NCBI GenBank assembly: GCA_963717505.1
Contig: OY970342.1
Span: 2,752,001-2,816,000 of the forward strand
Direction: 5' to 3'
Length of the DNA stretch: 64,000 nt
Source: Candidatus Eiseniibacteriota bacterium
GTDB taxonomy: Bacteria > Eisenbacteria > RBG-16-71-46
The notes beneath the pieces were generated by a model. That model was not told the DNA's origin. It was given only the letters and a program-made list of their open reading frames with translations, and did not search any database. Position 1 is the first letter of the stretch. Each line of letters starts with the position of its first letter. This document shows positions 1-20,725 of the stretch, in pieces. A program made the translations under genes and the position numbers.

Positions 1-663
1 CAAATGGCTTCTGCTGCTGTGGATCGCGGCGTGGATCACGGCCGGGTTCCTGTGGGCCCCGCTGGTGCCCGGGCTCGGCGAGACCACACGCGTGCTTTAC
101 TTCCACATCCCGGCGGCCTGGGTTACGGTGCTCGCGCTGGCGTGGTCCATGGTCCACAGCGTGCTCTACCTGAGGCGTCGACGCCTCGAGCACGACGATC
201 ACGCGGCGGCGGCCGCGGAGTTGGGACTGATGTTCTGCATGATCGCCACCGTGAGCGGCTCGATGTGGGCGAAGGCGATATGGGACTCACTACTGGAACT
301 GGGATCCGCGCGAGACCTCGATCTTCTTCCTGTTGCTGATCTACGGCGCCTACCTGGCGCTGCGCGGCGCGATCGAGGGCGACGAGCGCCGGGCGCGTCT
401 GTCGGCGATCTACTCGGTGGTCGCCTTCGTCACCGTGCCGTTCCTGATCTTCATCGTGCCGCGCATCTACTTCACGCTGCATCCCGATCCCGCTCATCAA
501 CGCGCGCGGCAAGGTCGACATGGATCCGCGCATCCGGATCGTCGTTCTTCGCGCATGCTGCATCGGGTTCACGGCTTTGTTCTTCTGGGTGCTGACCCTG
601 CGAGTCCGGGTCACTCGACTCGCTCGCCGAGCCGCCGTGCGCGCGGCGGCCGAGGCGGCATGA
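1..663 (+). CDS. ccmC: Heme chaperone-loading protein CcmC (5' partial, frameshifted)
   Basis: RVLYFHIPAAWV, a Trp-rich W..WDPRET region and LIYGAYLALR...RIYFTLHP, spread over several frames; lies upstream of ccmD/E/F. Confidence 0.85.
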
Positions 664-673
664 GGGAGGTGTG

Positions 674-781
674 ATGGGCGCCAACGGAGTCGTGCTCGGT
701 GTGGCCCTGCTCGCCTGGGGGCTGCTGTTCTTCTATCTCGTGCGCCTGGAGCGCCGCATCCGGGAGCTGGAGAAGTCATGA
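674..781 (+). CDS. ccmD: CcmD-like small membrane protein (35 aa)
   Basis: Read by hand: MGANGVVLGVALLAWGLLFFYLVRLERRIRELEKS (one TM plus charged tail); GGAGG RBS; stop overlaps the ccmE ATG. Confidence 0.75.
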   Translation: MGANGVVLGVALLAWGLLFFYLVRLERRIRELEKS

Positions 782-1167
782 ACCTCAAGAGTGATCGTGG
801 CGATCGTACTGTTGGTCGTCGCCGGCGGGTTCGGGGTCACCAGCTTCCGCAAGTCGATGACCCCGTACATCTCGTTCGCCGAGGCCCGGCGCGCGACCGG
901 GCATGGTCCAGGTGAACGGCGTGCTTGCCGACAAGAACTACGTGCTCAAGCGTGACGAGCAGTACCTCGCAGTTCGACCTCAAGGACGAGCGCGGCGAGG
1001 TGCTGCCGGTCGAGTACCGCGGCGTGATCCCCGGCAATTTCGACCAGGCGACCTCGATCGTCGCGATCGGCCGCTACCAGGACGGCCGCTTCGAGGCCGA
1101 CCAGCTGCTGGTCAAGTGTCCGTCGAAGTACCAGGCCGAAGCCGAACGGGGCGGAACCGCGACATGA
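778..1167 (+). CDS. ccmE: Cytochrome c maturation heme chaperone CcmE, Cys variant (frameshifted)
   Basis: N-terminal TM, VEYRGVIPGNF, FEADQLLVKCPSKY; indels near 790, 900 and 970. Confidence 0.85.
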
Positions 1168-3368
1168 ACTTCGGGCAGATCCTCGGCTGGATTTCGCTCC
1201 TGGCCTCGCTGGCGGCGGGGCTGCTGTTCATGGCGGCCGCCGGCGGGCGCGAGTCGGCGCTCAAGCCCGCGCGCATCGCGTTCGGCGTGCAGTGGCTGGC
1301 GCTGCTCGGCCGCGCCGGGCTGCTCTGGTACATCCTGTTCAACCACCAGTTCCAGTACCAGTACGTCGCCTCGTACTCGTCGCACGTCGATGCCCGGCGC
1401 ACTACGTGTACGCGGCGTTCTGGGGCGGGCAGGAAGGCACGTTCCTGCTGTGGGCGCTGCTCACCGCGACGCTCGGACTGGTGCTCATGCGCGTGCGGCA
1501 TCCGCTGACGACGCCGGCGATGTTCTTCCTCAACCTGCCGCTGGTGATGCTGGCGCTGGTCACGGTGATGCGCGGCCCGTTCCTCGACGTTCGCGCCGGG
1601 GACGATCCCGGTCGACGGCAACGGCCTGAACCCGCTGCTGCAGGACCCGTGGATGACCATCCACCCGCCGGTGCTGTTCACCGGCTTCTCGTCGCTGGTC
1701 GGTGCCGTTCGCGATCGCGATGGCGGCGCTGGTGCGCCGCGACTACGACGGCTGGATCAAGCCGGTGCTGCCCTGGGTGGTGTTCTCGACCGCGATCCTG
1801 GCCACCGGTTTCATCATGGGCGGTGTGTGGGCCTACAAGGTGCTCGGCTGGGGCGGCTACTGGGGCTGGGACCCGGTCGAGAACGGCTCGCTGATCCCCT
1901 GGCTCTCGAACGTCGGCGCTGCTGCACGGACTGCTGGTCCAGCGCGTGACCGGGTAGCCTCCGGCGCACCAACTTCTTCCTCGCGATCACCTCGTACGTG
2001 CTCGTGCTCTACGCCTCGTTCCTGACCCGCAGCGGCGTGCTGGCCGACTTCTCGGTGCACTCGTTCGTGAACCTCGGGCTCAACGGCTTCCTGCTCTCGT
2101 TCCTGTTCCTGGTCATGATCGTCGGCTACGGCACGCTGCTCGTCCGCCTGCGCGACATCCCCGCGCCGCCGCAGCCGCTCGGCAACTTCTCGCGCGAGTC
2201 GATGATGTGGCTCGGCCAGCTGGTGTTCATGCTGATGTGCGCGCTGATCGCGGTCGGCATGAGCGCGCCGCTGATCACGCGGCTGTTCGGTCCGCCCTCG
2301 AACGTCCAGACCTCGTACTACAACCTGGTCAACGCTCCGCTGGCGGTGGCGCTCGGGCTGCTGCTCGGAATCGCGCCGCTGATGCGCTGGCGCCAGCAGG
2401 AGGCGCGGCCGCTCCTGCGCGCCGCGTGCCGTCGGTCGCTGGTCGCGGTCGCTGCGTGACGCTGGTCGCCGCGGTCGCTGCGGCGTGCGCGAGCCGATGC
2501 CGGCCGCGGTGGTGTTCGCGTGGCCTTCGCGCTGGCCGCGAACCTCGTCGTCGACGGTGCGCGGCTTCCGCGCCGGCTGGAAGCACGGCGTCGCCTACCT
2601 CGGTCACGCGGGCGTCGCGGTCCTGCTGATCGGCGTGGTCGCCTCGTCCGGATACGGCCGCTCGGTCCAGGTCCAGCTGCCGCGCGGCGAGGAGCGCAGC
2701 GCGCTCGGCTTCCAGCATGACGTTCGAGGGCATGCGGCAGGATCGCGAGGGCAAGGACCACGTCATGATCGCGGTGAACGCGTCCGGAGCGGCAATTCGA
2801 GGCGCTGCCGGCGATGTACTGGAGCGAGTTCAACCAGGGCTACATGAAGAAGCCGCACATCGAGCGCTTCCTGACCCACGACGTCTACATCTCGCCGCTC
2901 GAGATGGTCGGCGACGATCCCGCGGCCAGCGCGCTGTGGCTCGCCAAGGGCGAGACGCAAGCAGATCGGACAGGTCGCCTACACGTTCGTGGACTTCGAC
3001 GTCCAGGGCATGGGGACCGCGGAGATGCGAGTCGCGGCCCAGCTTGCGCGCCGAGATCGGCGGACGCACGGTGCCGGTGCGACCGCGCATCGAGATGAAC
3101 GGAGGGCGGCGTCCCCAACCGCGATTCCCGACTACCTGCCGGGCGGGGCTCGGTCTAGATCGTGTCGGTGGACGCCACGACCGGCCGGGTCGCGCTGGAA
3201 GTGCCCGGCATGCAGAAGCCCAGCGAGGGCGGAATCCTCGCGGTCGAGGTCAGCACCAAGCCGCTGATCAACCTGGTGTGGCTGGGCGCGATCCTGATGC
3301 TGGGCAGCGTGTTCTTGAGCATGGGGCGTCGCATCATCGACGTCCGGCGGGCGGCGGCGAGCGCCTGA
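1164..3368 (+). CDS. ccmF: Cytochrome c heme lyase CcmF (multiple frameshifts)
   Basis: FWGGQEG, GLNPLLQDPWMTIHPP, WAYKVLGWGGYWGWDPVEN, FLTRSG..SVHSF, KPLINLVWLG. Confidence 0.9.
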
Positions 3369-3404
3369 AGTTTCTGGGCATCGTTGGGTCGAGGGGAAGT
3401 ACAC

Positions 3405-5880: not shown

Positions 5881-8280
5881 ATGTTCGACTCGCGCGCTGC
5901 ACGTGGACTGGGCAAGACCGGCGTGCCGTTCGCCGCCTGGCTGTTCTTTGCGGTCGGTGCCGAGGCCCAGCCCGTAGTGCTGCAGGAGAACCTGGCCGAG
6001 ACCGACGGGGTCGTCTCGACGATCGTGCTGTCCAGCACCTCGGCCTTCATCGGGGGCGACTTCACCTACGTCGGCCCGCATACTGGTTGCGCCGTGCCGC
6101 TCGGCGTCACCACCGCGACGGCACCGGCCAGTTTCCCGAAGGTCGAAGGTGGCGACGTGCTCGCCATCGCGGCTGACGGCGCCGGCGGGTGGTTTCTCGC
6201 CGGCAGTTTCACGCACGTCAGTGGCGAGCCGCGGCATCATCTCGCGCACGTGCTCGCCGACATGACGCTCGATGGCGGATGGGATCCGGGAGCGGATCGA
6301 CCGGTGTACACCCTCGCGCTCGGGGGATCGACTCTCTACGTCGGTGGCGAGTTCACCTCGGTCGGCGCCCGGACGCGCCATCGGATCGGCGCAGTCGACG
6401 CCACGACCGGCATCGCGACGGCATGGAATCCGCGCGCGAACGCTGCGGTCCATACCCTGGTGGTCTCCGACACGACTCTGTTCGCAGGCGGCGCGTTCAC
6501 TACCATCGGTGGGACGGTGCGCACGCGGATTGCCCAGCTGAGCCTGGCGACCGGCGAGGCGACCGTGTGGCAGGCCGGCGCCAACGGTGTGGTGCAGACG
6601 CTGTGTCTCAATGGCTCGTCGCTCTATGCCGGCGGGTGGTTCACCAGCATCGGCGGCCAGCCGCGAAGTCGCATCGCCGCGCTCGACCGGAACACCGGTG
6701 CGCCCACTGCCTGGAATCCAGGGGCCAGTGATGCGGTTCAAACCCTCGCAATCTCGGGAACCACGCTCTATGTCGGCGGCCTGTTCACCACGCTCGGCGG
6801 CCAGCTGCGCGACTTCATCGGCGCGGTCGACGCGGTGTCCGGAGTGACCACCGCGTGGAACCCCGATCCCGACGACCCGGTGACGGCACTCGCGGTGCTC
6901 GATACCACGATCTACATCGGCGGGCCGTTCTCGAGCATCGGCGGGGCGCCGCGCAACTTCATCGCTGCGGTCGGCGCGGTCACCGGAGGCGCCACCGCCT
7001 GGAACCCGGGCGCCAATGGCAACGTGCGCGCAGTGCAGGCCGCCGGGAGCGCGGTGTTCGTGGGTGGCGCGTTCTCGAGCGCCGGCGGCCAGCCGCGGGC
7101 CAACATCGCCGAGCTGAACCTGGCCAGCGGCCAAGTGACCGCGTGGAATCCCGGCGCCAATAGCGTCGTGCAATCGTTGGCGCTTTCCGGATCGACGCTC
7201 TACGTGGGCGGGTGGTTCACCAGTATCGGCGGCCTGGCGCGCAACTACGCTGCCGCGTTCAATACCACAACCGGGTTGCCGACCTCCTGGAACCCGAACG
7301 CCAACGATTTCGTGTCCACCCTCGGCGTCAACGGGTCCACGATCTACGCGGGCGGCTGGTTCACCTTGATCGGCGGTCTGACCCGCAATCGCGTGGCCGC
7401 CCTCAACAACACGACCGGTGCTGCGCTGACCTGGAATCCCAACGTCGATGGCGACCTTCAAACTCTGGTGGTCTCCGGCAGCAACGTCTACGTCGGGGGC
7501 TTCTTCAACATTGTCGGCATCCAGCCGCGTGACTACCTGGCTGCGGTCAGCACTTCGACCGGACAGGCCACCGCGTGGAATCCGACTCCCGACGATTTCG
7601 TCTACGCCGTGATGCCGGCGGGCGGCCTGATCTACGTCGGTGGCTGGTTCACCGAGGTCGGCGAGGAGGCTCGCGAGCGGCTCGCGGCGCTGGACCCGAC
7701 CACCGGTCTCGCGACCGGGTGGAACCCGGGAGCCAACGACTACGTGCACGTGCTCGGAGCCGCGGGGAGCAACTTGTACGCGGGCGGCTGGTTCACCTTC
7801 ATCGGTGGACAGCCGCGCACCTACCTGGCGGCGATCGACGCGGTGACCGGGGAGGCGAAGCCCTGGGCCCCTGATCCCGACGGGCCGATCTACGCCATGG
7901 CGCTGTCGCCGACCGCGATCTACGTGGGTGGGGACTTCGCCGAAATCGCCGGCGGACGGCGCCGCAGCCTGGCGGGGATTCAGATCCCGGTGACGCTCGA
8001 TGTTCCCGGGTCGTCTGCGGCGCTGACCGCGTTCGCCTGGCCGAATCCGTTCCGCGATCGGGCGGTACTCCACTTCTCGCTGCCCGAAGCGGCCAATGTC
8101 ACCGTGCGCATTTTCGACGTGGGCGGCCGGGTGGTGGCGAACCCGATCGCGAACCAGCGGTACTCGGCCGGATCGCACATGGTCGAATGGCGGGGCGGCC
8201 CGGCGCCCGCCGGGGTCTATCTCTACCGCGTCCAGTCGGATCGGGCGCTGGCCAGCGGCAAGATCCTGCACGTCAAGTGA
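5881..8280 (+). CDS. Secreted beta-propeller repeat protein with C-terminal FlgD-Ig/T9SS-like domain
   Basis: Signal-like N-terminus; 48-aa repeats WNP..N..V..LA..G..LYVGG.FT.IGG..R..IAA.D..TG; C-terminal WPNPF...IFDVGGR...GVYLYR. Confidence 0.8.
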   Translation: MFDSRAARGLGKTGVPFAAWLFFAVGAEAQPVVLQENLAETDGVVSTIVLSSTSAFIGGDFTYVGPHTGCAVPLGVTTATAPASFPKVEGGDVLAIAADGAGGWFLAGSFTHVSGEPRHHLAHVLADMTLDGGWDPGADRPVYTLALGGSTLYVGGEFTSVGARTRHRIGAVDATTGIATAWNPRANAAVHTLVVSDTTLFAGGAFTTIGGTVRTRIAQLSLATGEATVWQAGANGVVQTLCLNGSSLYAGGWFTSIGGQPRSRIAALDRNTGAPTAWNPGASDAVQTLAISGTTLYVGGLFTTLGGQLRDFIGAVDAVSGVTTAWNPDPDDPVTALAVLDTTIYIGGPFSSIGGAPRNFIAAVGAVTGGATAWNPGANGNVRAVQAAGSAVFVGGAFSSAGGQPRANIAELNLASGQVTAWNPGANSVVQSLALSGSTLYVGGWFTSIGGLARNYAAAFNTTTGLPTSWNPNANDFVSTLGVNGSTIYAGGWFTLIGGLTRNRVAALNNTTGAALTWNPNVDGDLQTLVVSGSNVYVGGFFNIVGIQPRDYLAAVSTSTGQATAWNPTPDDFVYAVMPAGGLIYVGGWFTEVGEEARERLAALDPTTGLATGWNPGANDYVHVLGAAGSNLYAGGWFTFIGGQPRTYLAAIDAVTGEAKPWAPDPDGPIYAMALSPTAIYVGGDFAEIAGGRRRSLAGIQIPVTLDVPGSSAALTAFAWPNPFRDRAVLHFSLPEAANVTVRIFDVGGRVVANPIANQRYSAGSHMVEWRGGPAPAGVYLYRVQSDRALASGKILHVK
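6280..7870 (+). repeat. Intragenic tandem repeat, 144-bp period
   Basis: Trp codons of the W(N/D)P motif fall at 6280, 6424, 6568, 6712, 6856, 7000 ... 7864. Confidence 0.85.
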
Positions 8281-8432
8281 GCGCCTCCGGGCGACTTGTT
8301 CGCCCGGCGTGGGATCGTGTATAGAGGTCCACGGTTTGTCTTACGCGCCCCGGCCGGGACGCGGGAGAAGCGGACTCGAATCGTGGCGATCCCTCGTCGC
8401 CGCGCTGCGTTCCACGGACTCGGAGGCGGCTC

Positions 8433-9077
8433 TTGCGTCACGCCCTGGGGGCGTTGCTGTGCCTGGCGGTGCCGACCGCGCTGCTGGTCAACTCCTGTGG
8501 CAGTTCGGCGCCGGGACTGGCGCGCGGAGGGCAGCTCTACGACACCTGTGTCCCCTGTCATGGAGAGCAGGGGCAAGGGGATCGCACCCTCGGCGCGCCG
8601 GCGATCGCGGGCTTGCCCCAGTGGTACATCGAGGCCCAGTTGACCAAGTTCAAGGGCGGTGTCCGCGGTGCGCATCCGGAGGACGTCGAAGGTGCCCGGA
8701 TGCGTCCCATGGCGCGCACGTTGTCGAAGGCGACCGACGTCACCTCCGTCGCCCAGTACGTCGCCGGTCTCACCGAGGTCCACCCGGCGCACACGCTCCA
8801 GGGGGGCGATCCGCAGGCTGGCAGCGAGCGCTACAAGACCGTGTGCGTGGTGTGCCACGGCACCGACGGTCGCGGCATGGAGCCGCTCAAATCGCCGAGC
8901 CTGGTCGCTCAGGCCGACTGGTACATGCTCTCGCAGCTGAGAAAGTTCAAGAGCGGCATGCGGGGCGCCCACCCCGAGGACATCACCGGCTCGCAGATGC
9001 GGGCCATGGCGATGACCCTCGAGGACGAGAAAGCGATGATGGACGTCATCGCCTACATCCAGACGCTGTCGCGATAG
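8433..9077 (+). CDS. Diheme cytochrome c (c4-like)
   Basis: Two heme motifs (CVPCH, CVVCH), each followed by P.IAG/L..Q..WY...QL.KFK.G.RG and a Met ligand; signal peptide. Confidence 0.9.
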   Translation: MRHALGALLCLAVPTALLVNSCGSSAPGLARGGQLYDTCVPCHGEQGQGDRTLGAPAIAGLPQWYIEAQLTKFKGGVRGAHPEDVEGARMRPMARTLSKATDVTSVAQYVAGLTEVHPAHTLQGGDPQAGSERYKTVCVVCHGTDGRGMEPLKSPSLVAQADWYMLSQLRKFKSGMRGAHPEDITGSQMRAMAMTLEDEKAMMDVIAYIQTLSR

Positions 9078-9089
9078 GGGGCGAACCAC

Positions 9090-9218
9090 ATGGCAGACAA
9101 CGAGCGCGACGAAGACTGGGGCCCGAAGACCGCCCGCCTGACGTTCGTCGCCACCCTGCTCGGCGCGGCCGCGTTCGTCGGTTCGGTGATCTTCTTCATC
9201 CTGAGCCGAAAGGCCTAG
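9090..9218 (+). CDS. Small single-TM protein (42 aa) in the oxidase operon
   Basis: Read by hand: MADNERDEDWGPKTARLTFVATLLGAAAFVGSVIFFILSRKA; fills the gap between the cytochrome c gene and coxB. Confidence 0.65.
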   Translation: MADNERDEDWGPKTARLTFVATLLGAAAFVGSVIFFILSRKA

Positions 9219-9222
9219 CGCC

Positions 9223-9933
9223 ATGATCGACACGCTCGTCAAGAGCCTCTCCAGCTACGCCGGCGACATCGACCGGCTGTTCCTGCTGGTCACGATCCTG
9301 GTCGGGTTCTGGTTCATCCTGGCCGAGATCATGTTCTTCTGGCTGATCTTCCGTTTCCGGGCCAAGCCGGGGGTGCCGGCCCTGTACCTGTCCGACAAGG
9401 ACAAGACGGTCAAGCGCTGGATCAACATTCCGCACTGGCTGATCATCGGCTGCGACGTCGTGATCATCGCCGCCGCGATCAAGGTCTGGACCTACGTCAA
9501 GCAGACGCTGCCGCCGGCCGACGCGACGATTCGCGTGACCGGCCAGCAATGGGTGTGGACGTTCGAGCATCCCGGTCCCGACGGAAAGCTGGACACCGCC
9601 GACGACATCGCGATCAGCGACGAGCTGCACGTCGAGGTCGGCAAGACCTACCACTTCCTGCTCGAGTCGAAGGACGTCCTGCACAGCTTCTCGGTGCCGG
9701 TATTCCGGCTCAAGCAGGACGCGGTTCCCGGGCGGACGATCACCGGCTGGTTCAAGCCGACCGGGCCGGGAACCCACGACATCCAGTGTGCGGAAATGTG
9801 CGGCATCGGCCACGGCGTCATGATGGGCCGGATCTTCCTCGAGACGCCGGAGCAGCACGCAGCCTGGGTGCAGAAGCACGCGCCCCCGGCGCTGGCCGCG
9901 GCTCCGGACACCCTCCCACAGGCGGTGCATTGA
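9223..9933 (+). CDS. coxB: Heme-copper oxidase subunit II (CuA)
   Basis: Two TMs, GQQWVW, DVLHSF, KQDAVPG, CAEMCGIGHGVM. Confidence 0.92.
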   Translation: MIDTLVKSLSSYAGDIDRLFLLVTILVGFWFILAEIMFFWLIFRFRAKPGVPALYLSDKDKTVKRWINIPHWLIIGCDVVIIAAAIKVWTYVKQTLPPADATIRVTGQQWVWTFEHPGPDGKLDTADDIAISDELHVEVGKTYHFLLESKDVLHSFSVPVFRLKQDAVPGRTITGWFKPTGPGTHDIQCAEMCGIGHGVMMGRIFLETPEQHAAWVQKHAPPALAAAPDTLPQAVH

Positions 9934-11660
9934 TGGCGCAACACGCGAGCGGCGACGCCCACGCGGCTACGGCCGATCACGGCCACGGCGGCGGGCACGG
10001 GCACGCGAAACAGTCCTTCTTCCACAAGTACCTGTGGTCGACCGACCACAAGATCATCGCCTTCCAGTACCTGTTCACCGGGCTGGCGATGGGGCTGGTC
10101 GGCGCGTTCATGGCGTACGTGTTCCGCATGCAGCTCGCGTTCCCCGGCCAGCCGGTGCCGTTCTGGGGCGTCGTGTCGCCCGGCGAGTACAACGCGCTGG
10201 TCACCAACCACGGCAGCATCATGATCTTCTGGGTCGCGATGCCGGTGCTGGTCGCGGCATTTGGCAACTTCCTGATCCCGTTGATGGTCGGCTGTGACGA
10301 CATGGTGTTCCCGCGCATCAACCGGCTCAGCTATCAGATCTTCCTGTTGAGCGCGATCCTGATCATCGCCTCGTTGTTCGTGAAGGGCGGCGGCTTCGGC
10401 GGCGCCTGGACCGCGTACCCGCCGCTGTCGGCCGGCGGCAAGTTCAACCTGACACCTGCGGGCTCGACCATGTGGCTGATCGCGGTCGCCCTCGAATTCG
10501 TCGCCTTCCTGCTCGGCGGCATCAATTTCATCACCACCGCGATGAACTCACGGGCCCCGGGCATGAAGGCGCTCGACGTCCCGATCGTAGTCTGGTGCAT
10601 CGTCATCGCCAGCCTGTTGTTCATGGGCTCGGTCGGCCCGCTGATCGCCGGCGCGGTCATGCTGGTGTTCGACCAGCTGATCGGCACCGGGTTCTACGAT
10701 CCCTCTCGCGGCGGCGATCCGATCCTGTGGCAGCACCTGTTCTGGTTCTTCGGCCACCCCGAAGTCTACGTCGTGCTGCTGCCGGCCTTGGGCATCGTCG
10801 CCGACGTCATGGTGGTGTTCTCGCGCAAGAAACTGTTCGGCTACAAGCTGATCCTGCTCACGATCATCGCGACCGCGGTGCTCAGTTTCTTCGTCTGGGC
10901 CCACCACCAGTTCATCGCTGGCATCGATCCGCGCATGGCCAATGTGTTCACTGCGACCACGGTCATCATCTCGATTCCGATCGCCGAGATGTGCTTCCTG
11001 TACATCGCTACCCTGTACGGCGGCTCGATTCGACTGACCACGCCGATGCTCTGGGCGCTGGCGTTCATCGCCGAGTTCCTGATCGGTGGCGTCACCGGCA
11101 TCTACCTGGGGGCCAGCGGCGCCGACATCTACCTGCACGACACCTACTTCGTCGTCGCCCACTTCCACTACACGTTCTTCCCGATAGCGATCATCGGCAC
11201 GTTCTGCGGGCTGACCTTCTGGTTCCCGAAGATGTTCGGCAAGATGATGAACGACGGCCTGGGCAAGATCCATTTCTGGGGCACGATCATTCCGTTCAAC
11301 CTGATCTTCATTCCCCTGTTCTTCACGGGTGCTGCCGGCGACCATCGGCGGATCTTCGACTACACCAACTTCCCCGAGCTGTCGACGCCCTGGCTGCAGG
11401 GGCTGCGGATGACCGCGACCATCTCGCTGGTGGTCATGCTGCTGTTCCAGTTCGTGTTCTTCTACAACTTCATCGTCAGCCTGATCCGCGGTCGCAAGGC
11501 CGAGAAGAACCCGTGGCAGTCCAATACGCTCGAGTGGACGGCGGAGTCCCCGCCGCCTCATGGCAACTTCGAGACCATGCCGACCGTCTACCGCGGGCCC
11601 TACGAATACAGCGCGCCCGGCCGGTCGACCGACTTCTGGCCGCAGAACGAGAAGGCGTAG
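9933..11660 (+). CDS. coxA: Heme-copper oxidase subunit I, A1-type signature
   Basis: STDHK, HGSIMIF, DMVFPRIN, WFFGHPEVY, WAHH, HDTYFVVAHFHY, RR pair. Confidence 0.95.
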   Translation: MAQHASGDAHAATADHGHGGGHGHAKQSFFHKYLWSTDHKIIAFQYLFTGLAMGLVGAFMAYVFRMQLAFPGQPVPFWGVVSPGEYNALVTNHGSIMIFWVAMPVLVAAFGNFLIPLMVGCDDMVFPRINRLSYQIFLLSAILIIASLFVKGGGFGGAWTAYPPLSAGGKFNLTPAGSTMWLIAVALEFVAFLLGGINFITTAMNSRAPGMKALDVPIVVWCIVIASLLFMGSVGPLIAGAVMLVFDQLIGTGFYDPSRGGDPILWQHLFWFFGHPEVYVVLLPALGIVADVMVVFSRKKLFGYKLILLTIIATAVLSFFVWAHHQFIAGIDPRMANVFTATTVIISIPIAEMCFLYIATLYGGSIRLTTPMLWALAFIAEFLIGGVTGIYLGASGADIYLHDTYFVVAHFHYTFFPIAIIGTFCGLTFWFPKMFGKMMNDGLGKIHFWGTIIPFNLIFIPLFFTGAAGDHRRIFDYTNFPELSTPWLQGLRMTATISLVVMLLFQFVFFYNFIVSLIRGRKAEKNPWQSNTLEWTAESPPPHGNFETMPTVYRGPYEYSAPGRSTDFWPQNEKA

Positions 11661-11666
11661 GGGCCC

Positions 11667-12239
11667 GTGGAAAAGACGATTGCCGCCCAGCGCAGCGCGA
11701 TGAACATCCCGACCGGACGGTTGGGAGTGTGGTGGGTGCTGGTCTCCGAAATCGTGATCTTCGGCGGGATTCTCGTCTCCTACATCATGCATCGGCTCGC
11801 GCATCCGGAGTGGGGGCACCAGGCGGCGAACACCAACATGTGGATCGGTGCGTTCAACACGCTGGTGCTGTTGACCTCGAGCCTGTCGGCAGTGCTCGCC
11901 CACCAGGCGGCCGAGGCGGGCAATGGCAAGAAGGCGGCCAAACTCCTGCTGGCAACCGTCGGCGGCGGCGCGATATTCCTGATCGTCAAGTCGTACGAAT
12001 GGACCACGGAGATCATGCACGGCTTCACCATCACTTCGAGCGGCTTCTGGTCCTACTACTACACCGCGGCCGGCCTGCACGCGTTCCACGTCGCCGCCGG
12101 GATGTGCGTCATGCTCTGGGTCGCGAGCACGGCGTGGAAGAACCAGGAGCTGCATCGCGTCGAGAACGTGGGCATCTACTGGCACTTCGTCGACATCGTC
12201 TGGATCTTCCTGTTCCCCTTGCTGTACATCGCCAAGTAG
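11667..12239 (+). CDS. Heme-copper oxidase subunit III-like (short form)
   Basis: SEIVIFG, NTLVLLTSS, GLHAFHV, YWHFVDIVWIFLFPLLY. Confidence 0.9.
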   Translation: MEKTIAAQRSAMNIPTGRLGVWWVLVSEIVIFGGILVSYIMHRLAHPEWGHQAANTNMWIGAFNTLVLLTSSLSAVLAHQAAEAGNGKKAAKLLLATVGGGAIFLIVKSYEWTTEIMHGFTITSSGFWSYYYTAAGLHAFHVAAGMCVMLWVASTAWKNQELHRVENVGIYWHFVDIVWIFLFPLLYIAK

Positions 12240-12249
12240 GGACGAACGC

Positions 12250-12738
12250 ATGAGCGCACACGCCGCCTCGCACGCATCGGGTCACGGACACCACCGGAAC
12301 TACGTGCGGATCTGGATGATCCTGGTCGGGCTGCTGGTGGTCAGCGTGGTCGGACCGATGTTCGGCATCCGGGTGCTGACGCTGATCACCGCGTTCGGTG
12401 TCGCGTTGGTCAAGGCCTACATGGTGGCGAAGAACTTCATGCACTTGGACATCGAGAAGCCGATCGTCGGCTGGATGCTGGCGATCGCGCTGACGTTCAT
12501 GGTGCTCATGTTCTCGGGGATCGCGCCGGACGTCATGAAGTCCCAGGGCCGCTCGTGGCAGAAGGGCCCGGGCTTTCACCCGGTGGAGAAGGTCGGGCAC
12601 GAGTCCGACGGACACGGAGCCGCCGGGGCCTCCGGGACCACAGAGCACGGAGGCGCGACCACCGGCACCGGAAGTTCGAAACACGGGAGCACGGGTGCTG
12701 CGACGGGAGACTCGAGTGGGAGCAGCAGCGGCCACTGA
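12250..12738 (+). CDS. Oxidase subunit IV-like protein with His/Gly/Ser-rich tail
   Basis: YVRIW..L, KAYMVAKNFMHL; three TMs. Confidence 0.8.
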   Translation: MSAHAASHASGHGHHRNYVRIWMILVGLLVVSVVGPMFGIRVLTLITAFGVALVKAYMVAKNFMHLDIEKPIVGWMLAIALTFMVLMFSGIAPDVMKSQGRSWQKGPGFHPVEKVGHESDGHGAAGASGTTEHGGATTGTGSSKHGSTGAATGDSSGSSSGH

Positions 12739-13309
12739 CGGCGGCACGGTCGCCCGCCGCACGCGCATCGCCGAGGACGGCGTCTTCGGCATGGCGCTGT
12801 TCGTGTTCGTCGAGGTCATGCTGTTCGCCGGGTTCATCTCGGCGTTCGTCGTGGTCGAGAACACGGCCCTGCCCGGCATGTGGCCGCCGCCGGGGCAGCC
12901 GCGCCTGCCGGTCGCGACCACCGCGTTCAACACCCTGGCTCTGTTCGCCAGCGGGGTCTTTCTGTTCCTGTCGCAACGCGCGTTTCAGCGGGGAGCGCAG
13001 GCGGTCGCCGCCCGCTGGCTGGGAATCGCGGTCCTGCTCGGCGCCTTCTTCGTCGGTTTCCAGGGGATCGAGTGGGCGCGCCTGCTGTCTCAGGGTCTGA
13101 CGCTGACCTCGAGTCAGCTCGGCGCCTTCTTCTACGTCATCGTGGGCGCCCATGCGCTCCATGCGGTCTCGGCGCTGGTACTGCTCGCACTGCAATGGCG
13201 GGCGCTCAAGGCGCAGCGGCTGACCCGCTCCGCGTTCGGGGCCGGCCAGCTGTTCTGGTACTTTGTGGTCCTGATATGGCCCGTCATCTACGTGCAGGTC
13301 TATCTCTAG
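12716..13309 (+). CDS. Second subunit III-like protein
   Basis: EVMLFAGFISAF, NTLALFASG, QGIEW, GAHALH, FWYFVVLIWP; start codon uncertain. Confidence 0.85.
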   Translation: MGAAAATDGGTVARRTRIAEDGVFGMALFVFVEVMLFAGFISAFVVVENTALPGMWPPPGQPRLPVATTAFNTLALFASGVFLFLSQRAFQRGAQAVAARWLGIAVLLGAFFVGFQGIEWARLLSQGLTLTSSQLGAFFYVIVGAHALHAVSALVLLALQWRALKAQRLTRSAFGAGQLFWYFVVLIWPVIYVQVYL

Positions 13310-13323
13310 CTCGATCTCTGGCG

Positions 13324-13581
13324 GTGGTTGCCACGGTGCTGCTGCCCGCGGCTGCCCATGCCTGTGCGGTGTGTGGCGCCGGTCTGCAGGATCGAAGCGC
13401 GAACGCCTTCGTCGGGATCACGGCCCTCTTGTCCCTGCTGCCGATGGGAATGATCGGGGCCGGGCTATGGTGGACCCGCCGCAATCTGTGGTCGAGCCTG
13501 GGCGGGAATCCGGACGATCGAGCCTCCGACCCCGAAGACCACACGCCGCCCGAGCCGCCGAACGCCCAGCCGGGCGCGTGA
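13324..13581 (+). CDS. Small membrane protein with ACAVC motif
   Basis: AAHACAVCG followed by one TM; lies between coxIII and SCO; start uncertain. Confidence 0.55.
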   Translation: MVATVLLPAAAHACAVCGAGLQDRSANAFVGITALLSLLPMGMIGAGLWWTRRNLWSSLGGNPDDRASDPEDHTPPEPPNAQPGA

Positions 13582-14234
13582 TGCGGATCCGACGTCGGGC
13601 GCGCAAGCCGCCCGCCATGTGGCTTCGCCTGGCATTGTTGGGCGCGGCTCTGGGAGTGGCGGCGTTCGCGACCGCGCGGCTCGTCGACCGCGAGAACCCC
13701 TCGGGGGCCGCCTCGGCCACCGACTGGAAGTCCGAGCCGTTCCCTGCGGACTACCCACGCGGCGAAGCCCCGTGCCCCGATTTTCAGCTGGTGGATCAGG
13801 CCGGAACGCCCTTCGGTCCGGCGCGATTGCGGGGCCGTCCCGCCGTCGTGGCGTTCGTCTTCTCGCACTGCCAGGCGATTTGTCCCGGCCTGGTGCACGA
13901 CGTGCGCGAGGCCGCTCGCGCCGTGGGACCCGACGCCGCCCAGCTGGTCCTGATCACGATCGATCCGGCGCGCGACTCGCCTGCGGTGCTGCCCAGGATC
14001 GCGAGCGAATGGCAGCTGGGTCCGTCGGAGTGGCTGCTCTCCGGGCCACCGTCCGAAGTCGAGCGTCTGCTCGACGCGTTCGACGTGGCCCGAGCCCCCG
14101 ACGCCCTGACCGGCGAGGTCGCCCACCCGCCGCTGGTCGTGATTCTCGATCCGCAGGGCCGGCAGGCGTATCGCTTGAATGCGCCGCCGATCGCGTGGAT
14201 CGCCGACGCCGTGCGCCGCAGTCGCACCCGCTAG
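13581..14234 (+). CDS. SCO family copper chaperone
   Basis: DFQLVDQ.G, CQAICP (CxxxC), ITIDPARD, conserved His in VAHPP. Confidence 0.88.
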   Translation: MRIRRRARKPPAMWLRLALLGAALGVAAFATARLVDRENPSGAASATDWKSEPFPADYPRGEAPCPDFQLVDQAGTPFGPARLRGRPAVVAFVFSHCQAICPGLVHDVREAARAVGPDAAQLVLITIDPARDSPAVLPRIASEWQLGPSEWLLSGPPSEVERLLDAFDVARAPDALTGEVAHPPLVVILDPQGRQAYRLNAPPIAWIADAVRRSRTR

Positions 14235-15293
14235 AGTCGGGTGCGGACCTCGCTCGCCGCGCGCCGGTCGGTGGTCAGCTCGACGTGCTTGCCCTGGATG
14301 AACGCCTCGCCTCTTCGACGTCTTCCCGGCTGCCGATGAACAGCGGCGTGCGCTCGTGGAGCGTGCCGGGGGCGATCTCCATGATGCGGCGCACGCCGTC
14401 GCTCGCCGCGCCGCCGGCCTGCTCGGCGATGAACGCGAGCGGCGCCGCCTCGTAGAGCACGCGCAGCTTGCCGCTGCGGGTTCTTGCGATCGCCGGGGTA
14501 GAGGAAGATGCCGCCGTAGAGCAGGTTGCGGTGGAAGTCGGCGACCAGCGAGCCGACGTAGCGCGCGCTGTAGGGCCGGCCGGTCGTCCGCGTCCTCCAT
14601 CTTGAGCCAGTCCACGTAGCGCTTGACGCCCGTCGTCCCAGCTGGACGTAGTTGCCCTCGTTGACGCTGTAGATGTGCCCGCGCGTCGGGGTGCGGATGT
14701 TGGGGTGCGAGAGCAGGAACTCGCCGACGCTCGGCTCGAACGTGAAGCCGTGGACGCCGTCGCCGGTGGTGTAGACCAGCATCGTGCTCGAGCCGTACAT
14801 CACGTAGCCGGCGCACAGCTGGCGGCGGCCGGCCTGCAGGCAGTCCTCGACCGTGCCGCTCCCCTTCTGCGTGATCCGCGGCAGGATCGAGAAGATCGTG
14901 CCGATGTTGACGTTGGCGTTGATGTTCGACGAGCCGTCGAGCGGGTCGAAGTTGACCACGTACTTGCCGATCGGCTGGCCACTCGGCGACCGGGATGATG
15001 TCCTCGTCCTCTTCGGAGGCCATCACCGCGAGCTGGCCGGTCGAGCCGAGCACGCGGTAGATGGTCGTCGTGCGCGAACACGGTCGAGCTTCTGCACCTT
15101 CTCGCCGTGGACGTTCTCGCCGCCGGTGTAGCCGAGCATGTCGACCAGGCCGGCGCGCGATCACCTCGCGGTTGATCATCTTGGCCGCGAGCGCGATGTC
15201 GTGCAGCACGCTGGTGAACTCGCCGCTGGCCTCGGGGTGGATGCGCTCCTGCTGCAGGATGAACTGCGACAGCGTGACGGCGCGGTCGGTCAT
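14231..15293 (-). CDS. fbp: Fructose-1,6-bisphosphatase class 1 (frameshifted)
   Basis: [61 protein letters not shown]. Confidence 0.92.
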
Positions 15294-15301
15294 GGCGTCC
15301 T

Positions 15302-16711
15302 CTAGTCCGAGAGTCCGGTCACGTCCTCGGGGCCGCTGCGCGGCGCCGACGCGGCCGCCGAGCGCCGGGAACGAGCCGGGAACGAACGGCGCGTGCTGCT
15401 CGGCCAGCGCGCGCGTGCCTGGCCACGTCGAGCTGCTCGAGCAGGAAGGTGAACTTCTCCTCGAGCGCGCGCGCCGATCGCCGTCGCGCGATCGGCGCCG
15501 GCATGCCCCACATCTCGCGCTTGAACAGGCCGAGCGCCTTCTTGCGCGTCTTGTAGAAGAACTGCTCGTCGGTGTCGCGTGGCCTTGCGCTCGTCGGCGG
15601 CTGCGGTGCGCAGGCGTCTCGTAGATCGCGCGCTTGAGGTCGGCGGGGAACGCCGGGTGGTCGAAGAGCATGTTCTGGAACTCGGTCGCCAGGTGGATCT
15701 CGCACGCGCCGAGCTTGGGGAAGCGGTCGAACAGCTCCGGCCGGCAGCGTCGAGGCGCCGTGCTGCACCGCGCCGGCCATGCCGTACTGCTCGCGCGCCA
15801 GCTTCGAGCAGCGTCTCGAGCGCGTCGAAGTCGATCTTGACCTGGGCGATCGAGCCGTCGGGCAGCGGCACGCCGCCGTGGCTGGTGCCGGTCTGGATCG
15901 AGATCTTGCTCATGCCGGCGGTACCGGGCGCGTGCTTGCTCGAGCGCCGCCCGGTAGACCGTCATGAACGCGTCGCAGCTCCTCGGGGGTCGAGTTCTTG
16001 CCGCCGACCTCGCCGATCTCGCCGCCGACCGAGACCGTGACGCCCTTGGGCTCGCGGCCGCGGATGAACGCGGTGATCTCGCGCGCACAGGTCGCCGTTC
16101 AGCCGCCTGCTGCGCCTCGTGGCCCGGCTTCGACAGATCGACCAGCGTCGAGGTGTCGACGTCGATGTTGTAGAAGCCGGCCTGGATCGCCTCGGCGGTC
16201 AGCTCCTGCGACCGGCTTGCAGCTCGGCGGTCGGATCGGTCGCGTACTTCTTGGCGTTGATCTGGAAGTGATCGCCCTGGATGAACACCGGGCCCTTCCA
16301 GCCCTCGCGCAGCGCCGCGGCCAGGACCACGAACGCGTACTCGGCGGGTCGCTGGTCGGTGTAGCTGATCTCGGAGCGCGCGATCTCGCAGATCACCGCC
16401 CCGGCGTCGAGCTGCCGGCGGGCGCGGAACAGGGCGCGGGCGGTGTCGTAGGCGACGCCGCGGATGTTGATCGCCGGCACCGTGAAGTCGGCCGGGGCCT
16501 CGCCGCGGCCGCGCGCGATGTAGAGACCGTGGATCGAGGCCGGGTAGATGCCGGCCGAGCGGCACTGGTCGAGCACGGCGGCGCGAGCGGCGTCGCGCAG
16601 CTCGGCGGCTCCGAACACGCCGGTCCACACCAGGCGATCCAGGGCTTCGGGGCTGCTCGACGCCAAGGCGGCGACCGCATGCGTGAGTTCCTGCGGGTTC
16701 TTGAGTTCCAT
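15302..16711 (-). CDS. Class II fructose-bisphosphate aldolase-family protein (frameshifted)
   Basis: [50 protein letters not shown]; adjacent to fbp. Confidence 0.85.
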
Positions 16712-16846
16712 GGGGGGAAGGCTCCTGGGCTCGGGACCTCGGCCGGGGTCGACGGGCGGGAGCGCAGACCCTGGACGGACGACTCCGGGCGAGTATAGCG
16801 CCCGAGGTTCCGAGCCGGCCAGCGGCGTCGACCGGGTCGCGGTCGC

Positions 16847-17495
16847 CTACATGCAGTATCCGGTGCAGCTCGTGAACGAGAACGTGCTGAGCGACACCTG
16901 GAGCATCAACGACAGGTCGGCCGGGCTCAGACTGCCGTCGAAATTGAAGTCCGAGCGCTCGAAGAAGGTTCCGCTGAAGCGAATCGGGCAGCCATACCGA
17001 CATGTCCACCGGGTTCACGCCGCCGACGCCGTTCTGGTCGAACGTCGCGACCTTGGCGGTCGAGATTCCGACGCCCTCCATCAAGATCCGAGCGCAGTTG
17101 AGCGGATGCCCGGGGGCCGCTCCGGTCGCGTTGTTGGAGCTGCCGACGATCGTGAACGCGACGCGGCCGGCGCCGTCGGTGACGCCGTAGACCCGGTGGT
17201 CACCGCAATCGATCGTTTCGGCCCCGGGCTGGACCGCGCAGATTCGAACGTCCGGCGCGCATTGCGCGAAGTCGATCTCGACGCGGACGTTCCGGATCGG
17301 CAGGCCGGCGGCGCCACGGACCACGACCTCGAATCTGCCGAACGGATCGGGAACGCCGAGCAGCGTGCCGACCAGGTGGATGCCGGGCGGCAGATCGCAT
17401 TGCGAAGGATCGGGAACATCGGCTGCGGCGAAGCGGGCGGGCAGGAGCAGGACCGCGGCCAGGGCAAACGCCCACCGTGACTGGAGTCGGAACAT
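16847..17495 (-). CDS. Secreted Cys-rich protein with dockerin/EF-hand-like repeats (frameshift near 16985)
   Basis: Signal peptide; FDQNGVGGVNPVDMSVW and SDFNFDGSLSPADLSLM; ends SCTGYCM*. Confidence 0.6.
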
Positions 17496-17714
17496 TTCAG
17501 TCTCCGGAGGTTTTCAACAACGAAGTTTCAAAAGATGTGAGTGGCGATCCGGCAGGGGGCGCGCCATGGTAGGTGCATCGGCGACCGGAGGAAAGGGAAT
17601 TCTTCGCGACACCGAACGTGTCGGAGGCGGTTGACACCCTTCGGGATCCAGTCTTGAATCGCGCTTCGAGCGCCGTTTCATGCTACCTGACATCGGAGAA
17701 CCGCAGTCGTGCCC

Positions 17715-18223
17715 ATGGCCCCAACCGTCTGCCGCCTGCGCGTGAACGGCGATCTCCGCGAGTGCGCGGTCACGCCGCAACACGACGCTGCTCGAGGCGC
17801 TGCGCTACGGCCTCGGCCTGACCGGCTCCAAGCAGGGCTGCGACAAGGGCGACTGCGGCGCCTGCACCGTGGTGGTCGACGGCGAAGCCGATCCTGGCCT
17901 GCATCTCGCTGGCGCTGGCGTACCACGACGGGCCGGAGATCACCACCATCGAGGGCATCGCTCGCGAACGGCGTGCCGCATCCGCTCCAGGACGCCTTCG
18001 ACGTCACCGGCGGCGCCCAGTGCGGGTTCTGCACCCCGGGAATCCTGATGAGCGCGTGGGCGCTGCTGCGCGCGCAACCCGAGCCCGACGCGCGACGAGA
18101 TCGCGCGCGCGCTGTCGGGCAACCTGTGCCGCTGCACCGGCTACACGAAGATCTTCGAGGCGGTCGAGCTGGCGGCGCGCGAGCATGCGCGAGCGCGCGA
18201 GCACGGAGGCGAGCGGCGCGTGA
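17715..18223 (+). CDS. Xanthine dehydrogenase-family 2x[2Fe-2S] subunit (HcrC-like, frameshifted)
   Basis: [32 protein letters not shown]. Confidence 0.88.
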
Positions 18224-20719
18224 GCCGGCCGGCGCGAGGCCGGCGATGGCGATCCCCGGCGGGCCGCATGATGCCGCGCGAGGATCGGCTCGACGCCGCC
18301 GGCGTGGCCGAGGGCGGTCGCACGCGCCGCCCGAACGGCGACGTTCCTCGTCATCGGCAAGCGCAACCGCAAGGTCGAGGGCCTGGCCAAGGTCACCGGC
18401 CGCGCGGTCTACACCGACGACCTCACGCTGCCGCGCATGCTGCACGGCAAGCTGCTGCGCAGCATCCACGCGCACGCGCGCATCCGTGTCGATCGACGCG
18501 AGCGCGGCGCTCGCGCTGCCCGGCGTGCACGCGGTGATCACCGGCCAGCGACCTGCCCGAGCTACTTCGGCATCATCCCGTGGACCCAGGACGAGCAGGC
18601 GCTGTGCGAGGACAAGGCGCGCTACGTCGGCGACGCGATCGCCGCGGTCGCGGCCGACAGCGAGCTGCTCGCCGAGGAGGCGCTCCGCGAAGATCCACGT
18701 CGAGTACGAGGTGCTGCCGGCGGTGATCGACGTCGAGACCGCGCTCGCGCATCCCGAGTGGAAGGTCAACGAGCAGGCGAAGGACGGCAACATCTCGAAG
18801 CAGGTCCACCTCGAGTTCGGCGACGTCGACGGCCGAGCTCGCGGCGAGCGACGCCGTGGTCGAGGGCGAGTACTGGTACGAGGGCTCGACCCACACGCCG
18901 ATCGAGCCGCACTGCGCGCTCGCCGACTTCGACCCGACCGGCTTCCTGACCGTGTGGTCGAGCACCCAGGTCGCGCACTACCTGCACCGCGACCTGGCCA
19001 AGGTGCTGGGCCTGCCGACCCAGCGCATCCGCGTGATCCAGCCGGTGGTCGGCGGCGCGTTCGGCGGCAAGAGCGAGCCGTTCTCGCTCGAGTTCTGCGC
19101 CGCCAAGCTGGCGATGATCACCGGCCGGCCGGTCAAGATCCTCTACACGCGCGAGGAGGTGTTCTACGCGCACCGCGGCCGCCACCCGATGCGGCTGCAC
19201 TACCGCACCGGCGTCAAGCGCGACGGCACGCTGACCGGCGTCGACGCGCAAGATCCAGATCGACGGCGGCGCCTACTCGTCGTTCGGGCTGGTCACCACC
19301 TACTACTCGGGCCAGCTGCTGACCGCGCCCTACCGCATGCCGCGCCTACCGCTTCGACTCGACGCGCGTGTTCACCAACAAGCCGTGCTGCGGACCCAAG
19401 CGCGGCCACGGCTCGGTGCAGCCGCGCTTCGCGTTCGAGTGCCAGCTCGACAAGCTCGCCGAGGCGATCGGCATCGATCCGATCGAGCTGCGGCGGCCGC
19501 AACTTCCTCGGCGAGAACACGCGCACCGTCAACGGCATGCGCGTCACCTCGAACGGCTTCCCCGAGTGCCTCGACGCGGTCGAGCGCGCGTCGGGCTGGA
19601 CGCGCGAAGTTCCGCCGCATGCCCTACGGCCGCGGCCTCGGCGTCGCCGGCAGCATGTACATCACCGGCACCAACTACTGCATCTACCCGAACGAGATGC
19701 CGCAGTCGGCGCGTCCAGCTCAAGCTCGACCGCAGCGGCCGCGCGACCGTGTTCTGCGGCGCCTCCGACATCGGCCAGGGCGTCGGACTCGGTGCTCGCC
19801 TACATCGTGTGCGAGGAGCTGGGGCTCGAGCTGCGGCGACGTGCGCGTCGTCGCCGCCGACACCGACCTCACCCCGGTCGACCTCGGCTCGCTACTCGAG
19901 CCGCGAGACGTTCATGGTCGGCAACGCCTGCCTGGACGCGGCGCGCAAGCTGCGCGCGCAAGGTCGCGCGAGGCGCTGGCCGAGCGCTGGGGCGTGCGCG
20001 CCGGGCGAGGTCACGCTCGCCGGCGGCGTCGCGTGCTGCGATGCGCGACCCCGCGCAGCACGTGCATGACCGTCCGGGAGGCGTTCCAGCTCGCCGAGGC
20101 GCGGTTCGGCACGCTCGGCTCGGTCGGCTGGTACCAGAGCCCCAAGCTCGGCGGCGACTACCGCGGCGGCACGATCGGCGCCTCGCCCGCCTACTCGTTC
20201 ACCGCGCACGTCGCCGAGGTCGAGTGCGACGCCGAGACCGGGCGCGTCGAGCGTGAAGAAGATCTGGGTCGCGCACGACTGCGGCCGCGCGCTGAACCCG
20301 GTCACGGTCGAGGGCCAGATGGAGGGCAGCGCCTACATGGGCTTCGCCGAGGCGCTGCTCGAGGAGCAGGTGTTCAAGCCCGCCGCCTCCGGCCACGGCG
20401 CCGGGCTCCACCACGGGCCGTCGCTGCTCGACTACCGCATCCCGACCTCGCTCGACACGCCCGAGCTCGAGTCGCTGATCGTCGAGTCGATCGATCCCGA
20501 GGGCCCGTACGGCGCCAAGGAGGCGGGCGAGGGGCCGCTGCACCCGAGCATCCCGGCGATCGCCAACGCGATCTACGACGCGCTCGGCGTCCGCTGCGAC
20601 CGGCTGCCCTTCCACCCGCCGCGGGTGCTGCGGCCTGCTGCGACGCGGGCGATGCCCGGGCCCACTGGGAGAAGGCGCGCGCCCAGGTCCGCGGCACCGG
20701 CGTCGGCGCGGAACGGTAG
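18220..20719 (+). CDS. Xanthine dehydrogenase-family molybdopterin-binding subunit (HcrA-like, many frameshifts)
   Basis: [48 protein letters not shown]. Confidence 0.88.
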
Positions 20720-20725
20720 CGACCC

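Follow-up and report, generated by a model that had tools for sequence, protein, structure and literature searches.

In canonical A-family cytochrome c oxidases, exchange of the K-channel Lys for Met (K319M, equivalent to K362M of Rhodobacter sphaeroides) is reported to abolish the transitions of the reductive phase (PMC10194837), and a working enzyme without this Lys therefore needs another way. Natural loss of the Lys is already known; it is recurrent in the A family and has been catalogued. An 'A1 KC-channel' subclade listed by Degli Esposti et al. 2021 (PMC8239418 Table S1, Fig. S7) includes Elusimicrobia, Candidatus (Ca.) Calescamantes HR19 and Methylacidiphilum, and is, as presented there, a sequence classification rather than a biochemical one. 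Lys-less A2-type oxidases have been described in acidophilic iron oxidisers, in the rus operon of Acidithiobacillus (bioRxiv 2020.03.01.968255), and a Lys-less COX in Ferrigenium straubiae, where its function is called unclear (bioRxiv 2026.01.22.701106). Here we describe a Lys-less A1-type oxidase encoded in 64,000 nucleotides of a Ca. Eiseniibacteriota genome (GCA_963717505.1, contig OY970342.1, positions 2,752,001 to 2,816,000), hereafter the window. Its subunit II (236 amino acids; PF00116) and subunit I (575 amino acids; PF00115) are encoded at 9223..9933 and 9933..11660, on the forward strand like the other genes of the operon.

Subunit I positions follow the window protein's own numbering, with R. 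sphaeroides (Rs) equivalents taken from a phmmer alignment to 1M56 that is ungapped across helices VI-X. Like the aa3 enzymes of R. sphaeroides (1M56, 2GSM; K362M mutant 3OM3) and Paracoccus denitrificans (1AR1), the window enzyme has the fold, the GHPEVY motif, D132/N139/E286 (Rs) and every ligand of the haems, CuA, CuB and Mg. Unlike them, it is without the K-channel set K362, T359, S299, S365 and subunit II E101, which read Met, Ile, Ala, Leu and Val, respectively. The alignment pairs T359 with I350, I361 with E352, K362 with M353, S365 with L356, S299 with A290, H300 with D291 and L390 with E381. Helix VIII (10956..11003, including the stretch ISIPIAEMCFLY at 10968-11003) carries T342, T343, S347 (Rs A356), I350, E352, M353 and L356, while A290 and the acid D291 are encoded at 10800..10805 and the helix IX residue E381 at 11073..11075. 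A first-pass annotation of the DNA had reported that helix VIII lost its Lys and Thr and gained a Glu, that the helix VI K-channel Ser became Ala, that helix IX gained a Glu and that subunit II lacks the channel-entrance Glu, all in two frameshift-free genes. The alignment bears out every one of these changes (T359I, I361E and K362M; A290; E381; Val at the E101 column) and leaves the K-channel positions free of Lys and Thr; both genes are open frames, though many neighbours in 1-25000 look frameshifted.

Conservation was counted in 147 core subunit I sequences (120 clusters plus 27 loci, with no further dereplication), 10 basal, 10 sister and 74 outgroup sequences, the frameshifted L026 being excluded. 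All six His ligands, Y279, E277, D123, N130, D398/H402/D403 and R472/R473 are retained in the alignment to 1M56. The six His ligands and the helix VI His-Tyr pair in XGHPEVY place the enzyme in type A1, and the CuA-bearing subunit II and the subunit III that A1 oxidases require are both present according to Pfam. A structure model of subunit I (predicted local distance difference test score 89.3) is nearest in fold to A-family aa3 structures (template modelling score 0.83-0.87, 37-38% identity), and the best sequence matches in the PDB are also A-family. Of the Rs D-channel residues, D132, N139, N121, N207, Y33, S142 and E286 are retained, and all of these but S142 were counted as conserved in 146-147 of 147 core sequences; the active site together with D132/N139/E286, and the cross-linking Tyr (Rs Y288, window Y279), are conserved in 147/147. 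The upper D-channel is remodelled (10494..10508): E188, A191 and F192 stand at S197, S200 and S201, which are described as D-channel boundary residues in PMC10341450. This change of the serine zone to Glu/Ala/Phe, along with F109 to Trp, occurs in 146/146 core sequences, and E188 is present in 146/146 core, 10/10 basal (one as Asp) and 0/9 sister sequences. The earlier impression that active site and D-channel look intact consequently stands for the ligands and for D132, N139 and E286, and fails for S197E, S200A, S201F and F109W. Near haem a, the core group also has a Thr and a Pro in helix X past the haem a His (11160-11183; 146/146) and Arg492 (11406-11408; mostly Asn in others; 146/146), changes that may reflect tuning of haem a.

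Relative to canonical aa3, subunit I has E188, E352, E381, T310, T314, S318 and S347, with Q326 and P417 as further residues new against both R. sphaeroides and P. denitrificans, and subunit II has H71 and D78. Lys at position 362 occurs in 0/147 core, 0/10 basal and 0/10 sister sequences and in 71/74 outgroup sequences. Helix VIII E352 is found in 146/147 core and 0/10 basal sequences, and the E381 position holds Glu in 131, Thr in 15 and Asp in one of the 147 core sequences, with Glu in 2/10 basal ones. There is no Ser or Thr at position 290 among the 147 core sequences, and position 291 is Asp or Glu in 147/147 of them, yet also in 43/74 outgroup sequences. The wall of the K-side cavity has gained Ser and Thr (A319T, I323T, G327S and A356S). 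The first three form a hydroxyl stripe on helix VII (T310, T314, S318; 10860..10886), where the core has Thr or Ser at A319 in 147/147, Thr at I323 in 141/147 and Ser at G327 in 147/147. The fourth, S347, is Ser in 147/147 core, 10/10 basal and 10/10 sister sequences; in the outgroup this position is Ser in 0/74 and Thr in 2/74. Across core, basal and sister sequences together, S347 and S318 are present in 167/167 and T342 in 166/167. These gains coincide with A319, G327 and A356, which are listed among the residues defining the width or boundary of the K-channel (PMC10341450), and helix VII is described as closely contacting the K-channel Lys (PMC9335260). Such conserved, lineage-wide polar gains lend support to the rewired proton path that the first-pass annotation had suggested.

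Subunit II shows a parallel pattern. Its CuA ligands are H154, C189, E191, C193, H197 and M200, and H154, C189, C193, H197 and M200 are invariant in 36/36 subunit II rows. The K-channel entry column (E101) is Val in the window and Glu in 73/77 outgroup but 2/27 core sequences. Helix 2 carries a polar pair, H71 and D78 (9433..9456), spaced i, i+7 on the same helix face; D78 is invariant in 36/36 rows, and H71 occurs in 29/29 core and 0/7 basal rows, the latter having Asp or Glu at 82. E352 goes together with H71 in the core, and basal members have neither. Buried acids in the subunit II helices had also been singled out in the first pass; this holds for D78 in helix 2, and E35 in helix 1 was rejected as a novelty, the outgroup column being Glu or Gln in 53/77 sequences. 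Of L187, L188 and L189, which belong to the Lys-less sister group, the first two encode subunit II after subunits I and III, with a Glu in the middle of its helix 2.

The Lys-less signature is a lineage-wide, conserved variant of A1 oxidases. Among the 80 genome loci returned, 24 belong to the Lys-less group, and the carriers come from Gemmatimonadota, Myxococcota, Bdellovibrionota, Verrucomicrobiota, Eisenbacteria, Fibrobacterota and Calescibacteriota; the closest named relatives are Ca. Eisenbacteria, and the best 120 protein clusters show 75-90% identity. In a careful tree of 42 of 72 rows (A-family only, midpoint root), support was 100/100 for the core, 100/100 for core plus basal and 99/98 for core, basal and sister together. 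These three groups nest within a 100/99 group that contains Lys-bearing A1 enzymes, those surrounding the Lys-less clade being from Gemmatimonadota and Acidobacteriota, and a quick tree of all 72 rows agrees. The homologues thus share the signature as a clade, as the first-pass annotation had proposed to check. On the tree, S347, S318 and T342 (all three groups) were gained before E188 and Q326 (basal and core), and these before E352, H71 and, mostly, E381 (core). Because E352 was gained only in the core, it is a late addition and was not required for life without the Lys. In a sample of 201 genomes of the phylum, at least 58 hold the core or basal form, counted at ≥55% identity among the matches listed, with 67 weaker matches besides. 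Chance, a frameshift or a sequencing artefact was rejected as the origin of the pattern, which is held by 147 homologues.

Three records within the group deserve separate mention. Puniceicoccaceae bacterium K14 (L011), whose record carries no metagenome label, may be a core member that can be grown, although E352 is missing in it. L013, titled Klebsiella pneumoniae (a metagenome-assembled genome), carries the operon and groups with non-enteric members, so that its label is probably wrong. The basal member L040 (1-2961; G023:C134) has a cytochrome bd-like gene with a CxxCH motif directly upstream, and its subunit II open reading frame bears a haem c motif.

When compared with the published Lys-less enzymes, the window oxidase resembles the 'A1 KC-channel' subclade in being of A1 type, in the absence of Lys, in the acid at H300 and in the Ser at G327, as tabulated in PMC8239418. 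The HR19 row of that table (S299F, K362T, T359F, E300) equals our basal member L021 (Ca. Calescibacterium) at four of the five K-side columns; the fifth, S365, is Ala in L021 and Ser in the HR19 row. HR19 may therefore be a basal relative in the clade of the window enzyme, as judged from the pattern in the table, and our sister group matches the Elusimicrobia and Methylacidiphilum rows by residue pattern only. The same table has no columns for E188, E352, E381, S347 or H71/D78, and no row with the core combination of Ala, Met, Ile and Leu. Like the window enzyme, the oxidases of the iron oxidisers and of F. straubiae have naturally lost both the Lys and the Glu of subunit II, the D-channel being said to be kept in the bioRxiv texts cited above; unlike the window enzyme, those of the iron oxidisers keep T359 (in PMC8239418) and are A2. 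The doublet of COX3 genes in the window recalls A1 subtype a-III and coxMNOP-type operons (PMC6431628), although the a-III members listed in PMC8239418 keep a canonical K-channel. Our literature search, with subscription papers and bioRxiv supplements outside its coverage, found nothing on the E188/E352/E381/H71/D78 signature, nor any bench work on this variant.

B-family oxidases have a K-channel analogue with Tyr 11 and 15 residues after the helix VI His and Ser or Thr at the T359 and K362 positions, and no D-channel. These ba3-type residues are absent from the window enzyme, which has L286, A290, I350 and M353 there and a D-channel (compared with the B-type L160). For the C family, PMC8239418 gives the KC-channel residues as Y227, S240, S244, H247, Y255, S287 and N293 in Vibrio cholerae numbering; their equivalents in the window are D291, G303, I307, T310, S318, I350 and L356, of which 3/7 are polar. 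Among the nitric oxide reductases (NORs), cNOR and qNOR carry a Glu where the helix VI Tyr would be, another Glu at +8 and one in helix VIII. The window enzyme is like cNOR, qNOR and the B-derived eNOR, sNOR, gNOR and nNOR (PMC11214002) in superfamily and in having buried glutamates, and like the B-derived ones in having a CuA subunit II. Unlike cNOR, qNOR and eNOR/sNOR/gNOR/nNOR/bNOR, where the active-site Tyr is absent, it keeps the Tyr and is without the NOR glutamates in register.

To place the loss of the Lys in the wider A family, we clustered diverse representatives at 50% identity and built a FastTree tree. The Lys is absent in 54/144 representatives, with at least nine changes on the tree; the loss emphasised in the first-pass annotation is thus real, and less exceptional than it implied, having been published before. 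Ser or Thr at A356 occurs in 33/54 Lys-less vs 1/90 Lys-bearing representatives, and a helix IV acid in 21/53 vs 1/88. A convergent gain of Ser/Thr or of a helix IV acid with Lys loss was nevertheless set aside, as these strong raw counts were not significant on seven independent pairs (for A356, 3.4 pairs the same way and 0.0 the opposite way, p ~0.25). Glu at 188, 352 and 381 is rare outside our group (5/142, 3/148 and 4/147 representative rows, several of which are group members).

Several other A-type sequences depart from the canonical pattern in their own ways. The two Terriglobia oxidases L047 and L048 (6001-7725) have Val at K362 while branching among acidobacterial enzymes that bear the Lys, which makes theirs an independent and recent loss. 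The A-type subunit I of L030 (6001-7659) has two CuB His changed to Gln, K362V and Asn/Ser at D407/D412, and lies near the ordinary L029; from these residues it is possibly a non-oxidase derivative. In L123 (G050), a subunit I of A1 type that bears the Lys, the CuB His of helix VI is exchanged for Asp, maybe through a sequence error. A separate large Lys-to-Gln lineage (P0152, P0166, P0178, P0196, P0197 and related sequences), with long subunits mostly >800 amino acids, carries helix IV acids and represents a second route to D-channel acidification.

The genome that contains the window is a single contig, 86.7% complete. A profile search found one PF00115 locus in it, and no match to a bd oxidase. 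CtaA (haem a synthase) lies beside a UbiA-family gene, and an ActA-B-C-E-F-like cluster (complex ACIII) at C1:2580656-2588147; no bc1-type cytochrome b was found in this genome. Across carriers, all of which are assembled or incomplete genomes, the Lys-less form is the sole haem-copper oxidase, with no bd above cut-off, in 8/34, and CtaA is present in 32/33, within ~5 kb of the oxidase in five. Among 41 related genomes, 11 have the Lys-less form, 21 the usual Lys-bearing A1 form and none both. Strict mutual exclusion with other A-type oxidases was rejected; it is true only versus the usual A1 form in these 41 relatives. An A2 fragment is present in G047, Lys-bearing A-types occur in G001, G003, G006, G019 and G020, and a second copy is found in G015 (Lys-less) and in G188 (at ~41%). 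From its residues and this setting, we consider it very probable that the window oxidase reduces O2 to water.

Our preferred reading, on which we regard the balance as even, is that of an A1 cytochrome c oxidase reducing O2 with a rebuilt proton route on the K side of the active site. Electrons would pass from complex ACIII to the dihaem cytochrome c encoded in the operon, then to CuA, haem a and the haem a3-CuB site. Protons of the reductive half-cycle would enter near D291 and the interface of subunits I and II, where the Lys would be replaced as titratable relay by E352, probably in a pair with H71 of subunit II. From there they would traverse a water-filled cavity walled by T310, T314, S318 and S347 to reach Y279, S347 substituting for T359. 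The D-channel would continue to feed E277 and the pump, E188 replacing the serine zone. An open K cavity is favoured because a closed one would not need S347 and S318 in 167/167 sequences.

Nonetheless, this proposal needs to be read with caution, as several observations weigh against it. Residue placements derive from the alignment to R. sphaeroides and from ideal-helix geometry. On an ideal helix wheel, E352 is turned ~100 degrees from where K362 would be and ~160 degrees from where T359 would be, and it may therefore be a structural residue facing subunit II. Basal members have neither E352 (0/10) nor H71 (0/7), so that loss of the Lys is tolerated in their absence; E352 is also missing in one core member (L011), and 15 core members have Thr at 381. 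Corrected for kinship over the seven independent pairs, gain of Ser/Thr shows no significant association with Lys loss, and A319 and A351 lean the opposite way. The description as a sole oxidase rests on incomplete genomes (86.7% for the window's own), many carriers also hold cbb3, bd (12/33 above the bd cut-off) or another A-type oxidase, and the basal forms in families f10 and f17 are mostly found beside a second A-type copy (~41% identity).

It is also conceivable, if rather unlikely, that all protons reach an O2-reducing site via the D-channel, with E188 serving the reductive phase as an additional titratable group, a vestigial K cavity, and E352, E381, H71 and D78 in structural roles. E188 is the one acid common to all core and basal members and missing in the outgroup, hydrophobic residues stand at all three of T359, K362 and S365, and the helix IV acid is frequent in Lys-less representatives (the 21/53 vs 1/88 noted above). 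However, the Lys-less sister group is without E188 (0/9) and yet keeps S347, S318 and T342, the helix IV association is not significant once kinship is corrected for, and the invariant K-side hydroxyls would be left unexplained. An O2 reductase that bypasses the K cavity through a new wire on subunit II helix 2 (E352-H71, D78 and T342/T343 near the CuB ligands) strikes us as distinctly improbable. It would account for the invariance of D78 (36/36) and the near-invariance of T342 (166/167), which counting residues from the E101/S365 level would put at the same height; E352 and H71 appear jointly in the core and are both missing in basal members, and in two subunits II of the sister group this stretch of helix 2 likewise holds a Glu. 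The spacing of H71 and D78 is, however, ~10 Å along the helix, the co-occurrence of E352 and H71 amounts to one evolutionary event, and the second acid of basal members (82) is placed nearer the outside and hints at access from another direction. Equally open to doubt, though perhaps not quite so improbable, is a broader form in which a pumping aa3 enzyme would have both a third route (E352-H71-D78-T342/T343 along the I/II interface) and the new D-channel carboxylate, assembled stepwise through S347, T342 and a subunit II acid in the sister group, E188 in basal members, and E352, H71 and E381 in the core. If true, this would be a third proton route of a kind never described in haem-copper oxidases, with sister and basal forms as natural intermediates for dissecting the role of the Lys.

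A different chemistry was the other suggestion of the first-pass annotation, and a NO reductase or dedicated peroxide reductase is very improbable. K-blocked oxidases are reported to retain peroxidase activity (PMC10095113), A-family enzymes to reduce NO weakly (PMC11214002), and NirK is above cut-off in 7/33 carriers. On the other hand, NOR families are identified by loss of the cross-linked Tyr (PMC11214002), whereas here the Tyr is kept in 147/147 along with the D-channel. When cNOR and qNOR of related genomes are brought into register by their conserved His residues, the positions of the NOR glutamates are occupied by Y279, L283 and I346, and E352 matches none of them. The window genome has no NirK above cut-off and no NirS-length match, just a short weak match to the cytochrome d1 family; NirK is under cut-off or absent in 26/33 carriers, and several carriers hold a separate cNOR or qNOR. 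Judged on these residues and genes, the NO reductase reading is unsupported. Nothing points to peroxide reduction as the role, and it may occur as a side activity because K-blocked oxidases keep it, as described in PMC10095113. Sodium pumping is known for a cbb3 oxidase. The buried acids gained here, three or four in number and with Ser/Thr nearby, could form a cation site in a sodium-pumping oxidase, which we regard as highly improbable: the ATP synthase c subunit is without the Gln/Ser/Thr sodium ligands, NqrB/RnfD-family matches are weak only, and E381 is eight residues off the cbb3 helix IX Glu position. We give hardly any credence to an inactive or purely regulatory relic. The effect of K319M (K362M) in canonical enzymes (PMC10194837) would fit such a loss of function, but the protein keeps 75-90% identity over 120 protein clusters, its operon is intact in several phyla, and it is the sole haem-copper oxidase found in the window genome.

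The operon around the two subunit genes is, in order, dihaem cytochrome c, a 42-amino-acid protein, II, I, IIIa, IV, IIIb, a CxxC protein and SCO, and its two short subunits III and dihaem cytochrome c set it apart from canonical aa3. The c4-like cytochrome c (8433..9077; two PF00034 stretches, start codon uncertain) is the likely electron donor, and its gene lies 5' of subunit II in 19/20 core loci, the remaining locus being at a contig end. Between it and subunit II, a 42-amino-acid single-helix membrane protein (9090..9218) is a possible extra subunit; Pfam and NCBIfam searches gave no match, and a short hydrophobic open reading frame resembling it occupies the same site in 22/22 loci examined. 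Downstream follow the short first copy of subunit III (IIIa; 11667..12239; PF00510), subunit IV (12250..12738; PF03626, TIGR02229 above cut-off) and the second copy of subunit III (IIIb; 12695..13309; PF00510), whose true start is probably downstream of the open reading frame start. This IIIa-IV-IIIb order recurs in 19/20 core loci, again with a contig end as the exception. A small membrane protein with a CxxC motif (13309..13581; start uncertain) had no match in a Pfam search and is a possible copper-delivery factor; a similar open reading frame comes after IIIb in 16/18 loci. The SCO1/SenC copper chaperone gene (13581..14234; PF02630) has no counterpart at the corresponding place in the 20 core loci compared. 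No sigma-70-like promoter was found in 8200-14400.

Elsewhere in the window, genes resembling cytochrome c maturation, fructose-bisphosphatase/aldolase and molybdo-hydroxylase genes (1-3400 and 14231-22400; named by eye) appear to be broken by frameshifts, which are likely to be assembly indels. An IS481-like transposase is found at 38264-39496.

In many uncultured bacteria, an enzyme of this kind is likely to be the main oxidase. Why A-family oxidases need two proton channels, and whether K362 acts as a proton carrier or as a charge compensator, are long-standing questions that have been studied mostly with crippled mutants. An enzyme that is naturally K362M, T359I, S299A and without E101 offers a natural test of the role of the Lys, and its few conserved, putatively compensating residues are open to mutation in the window enzyme or to transfer into the K362M enzyme of R. 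sphaeroides.

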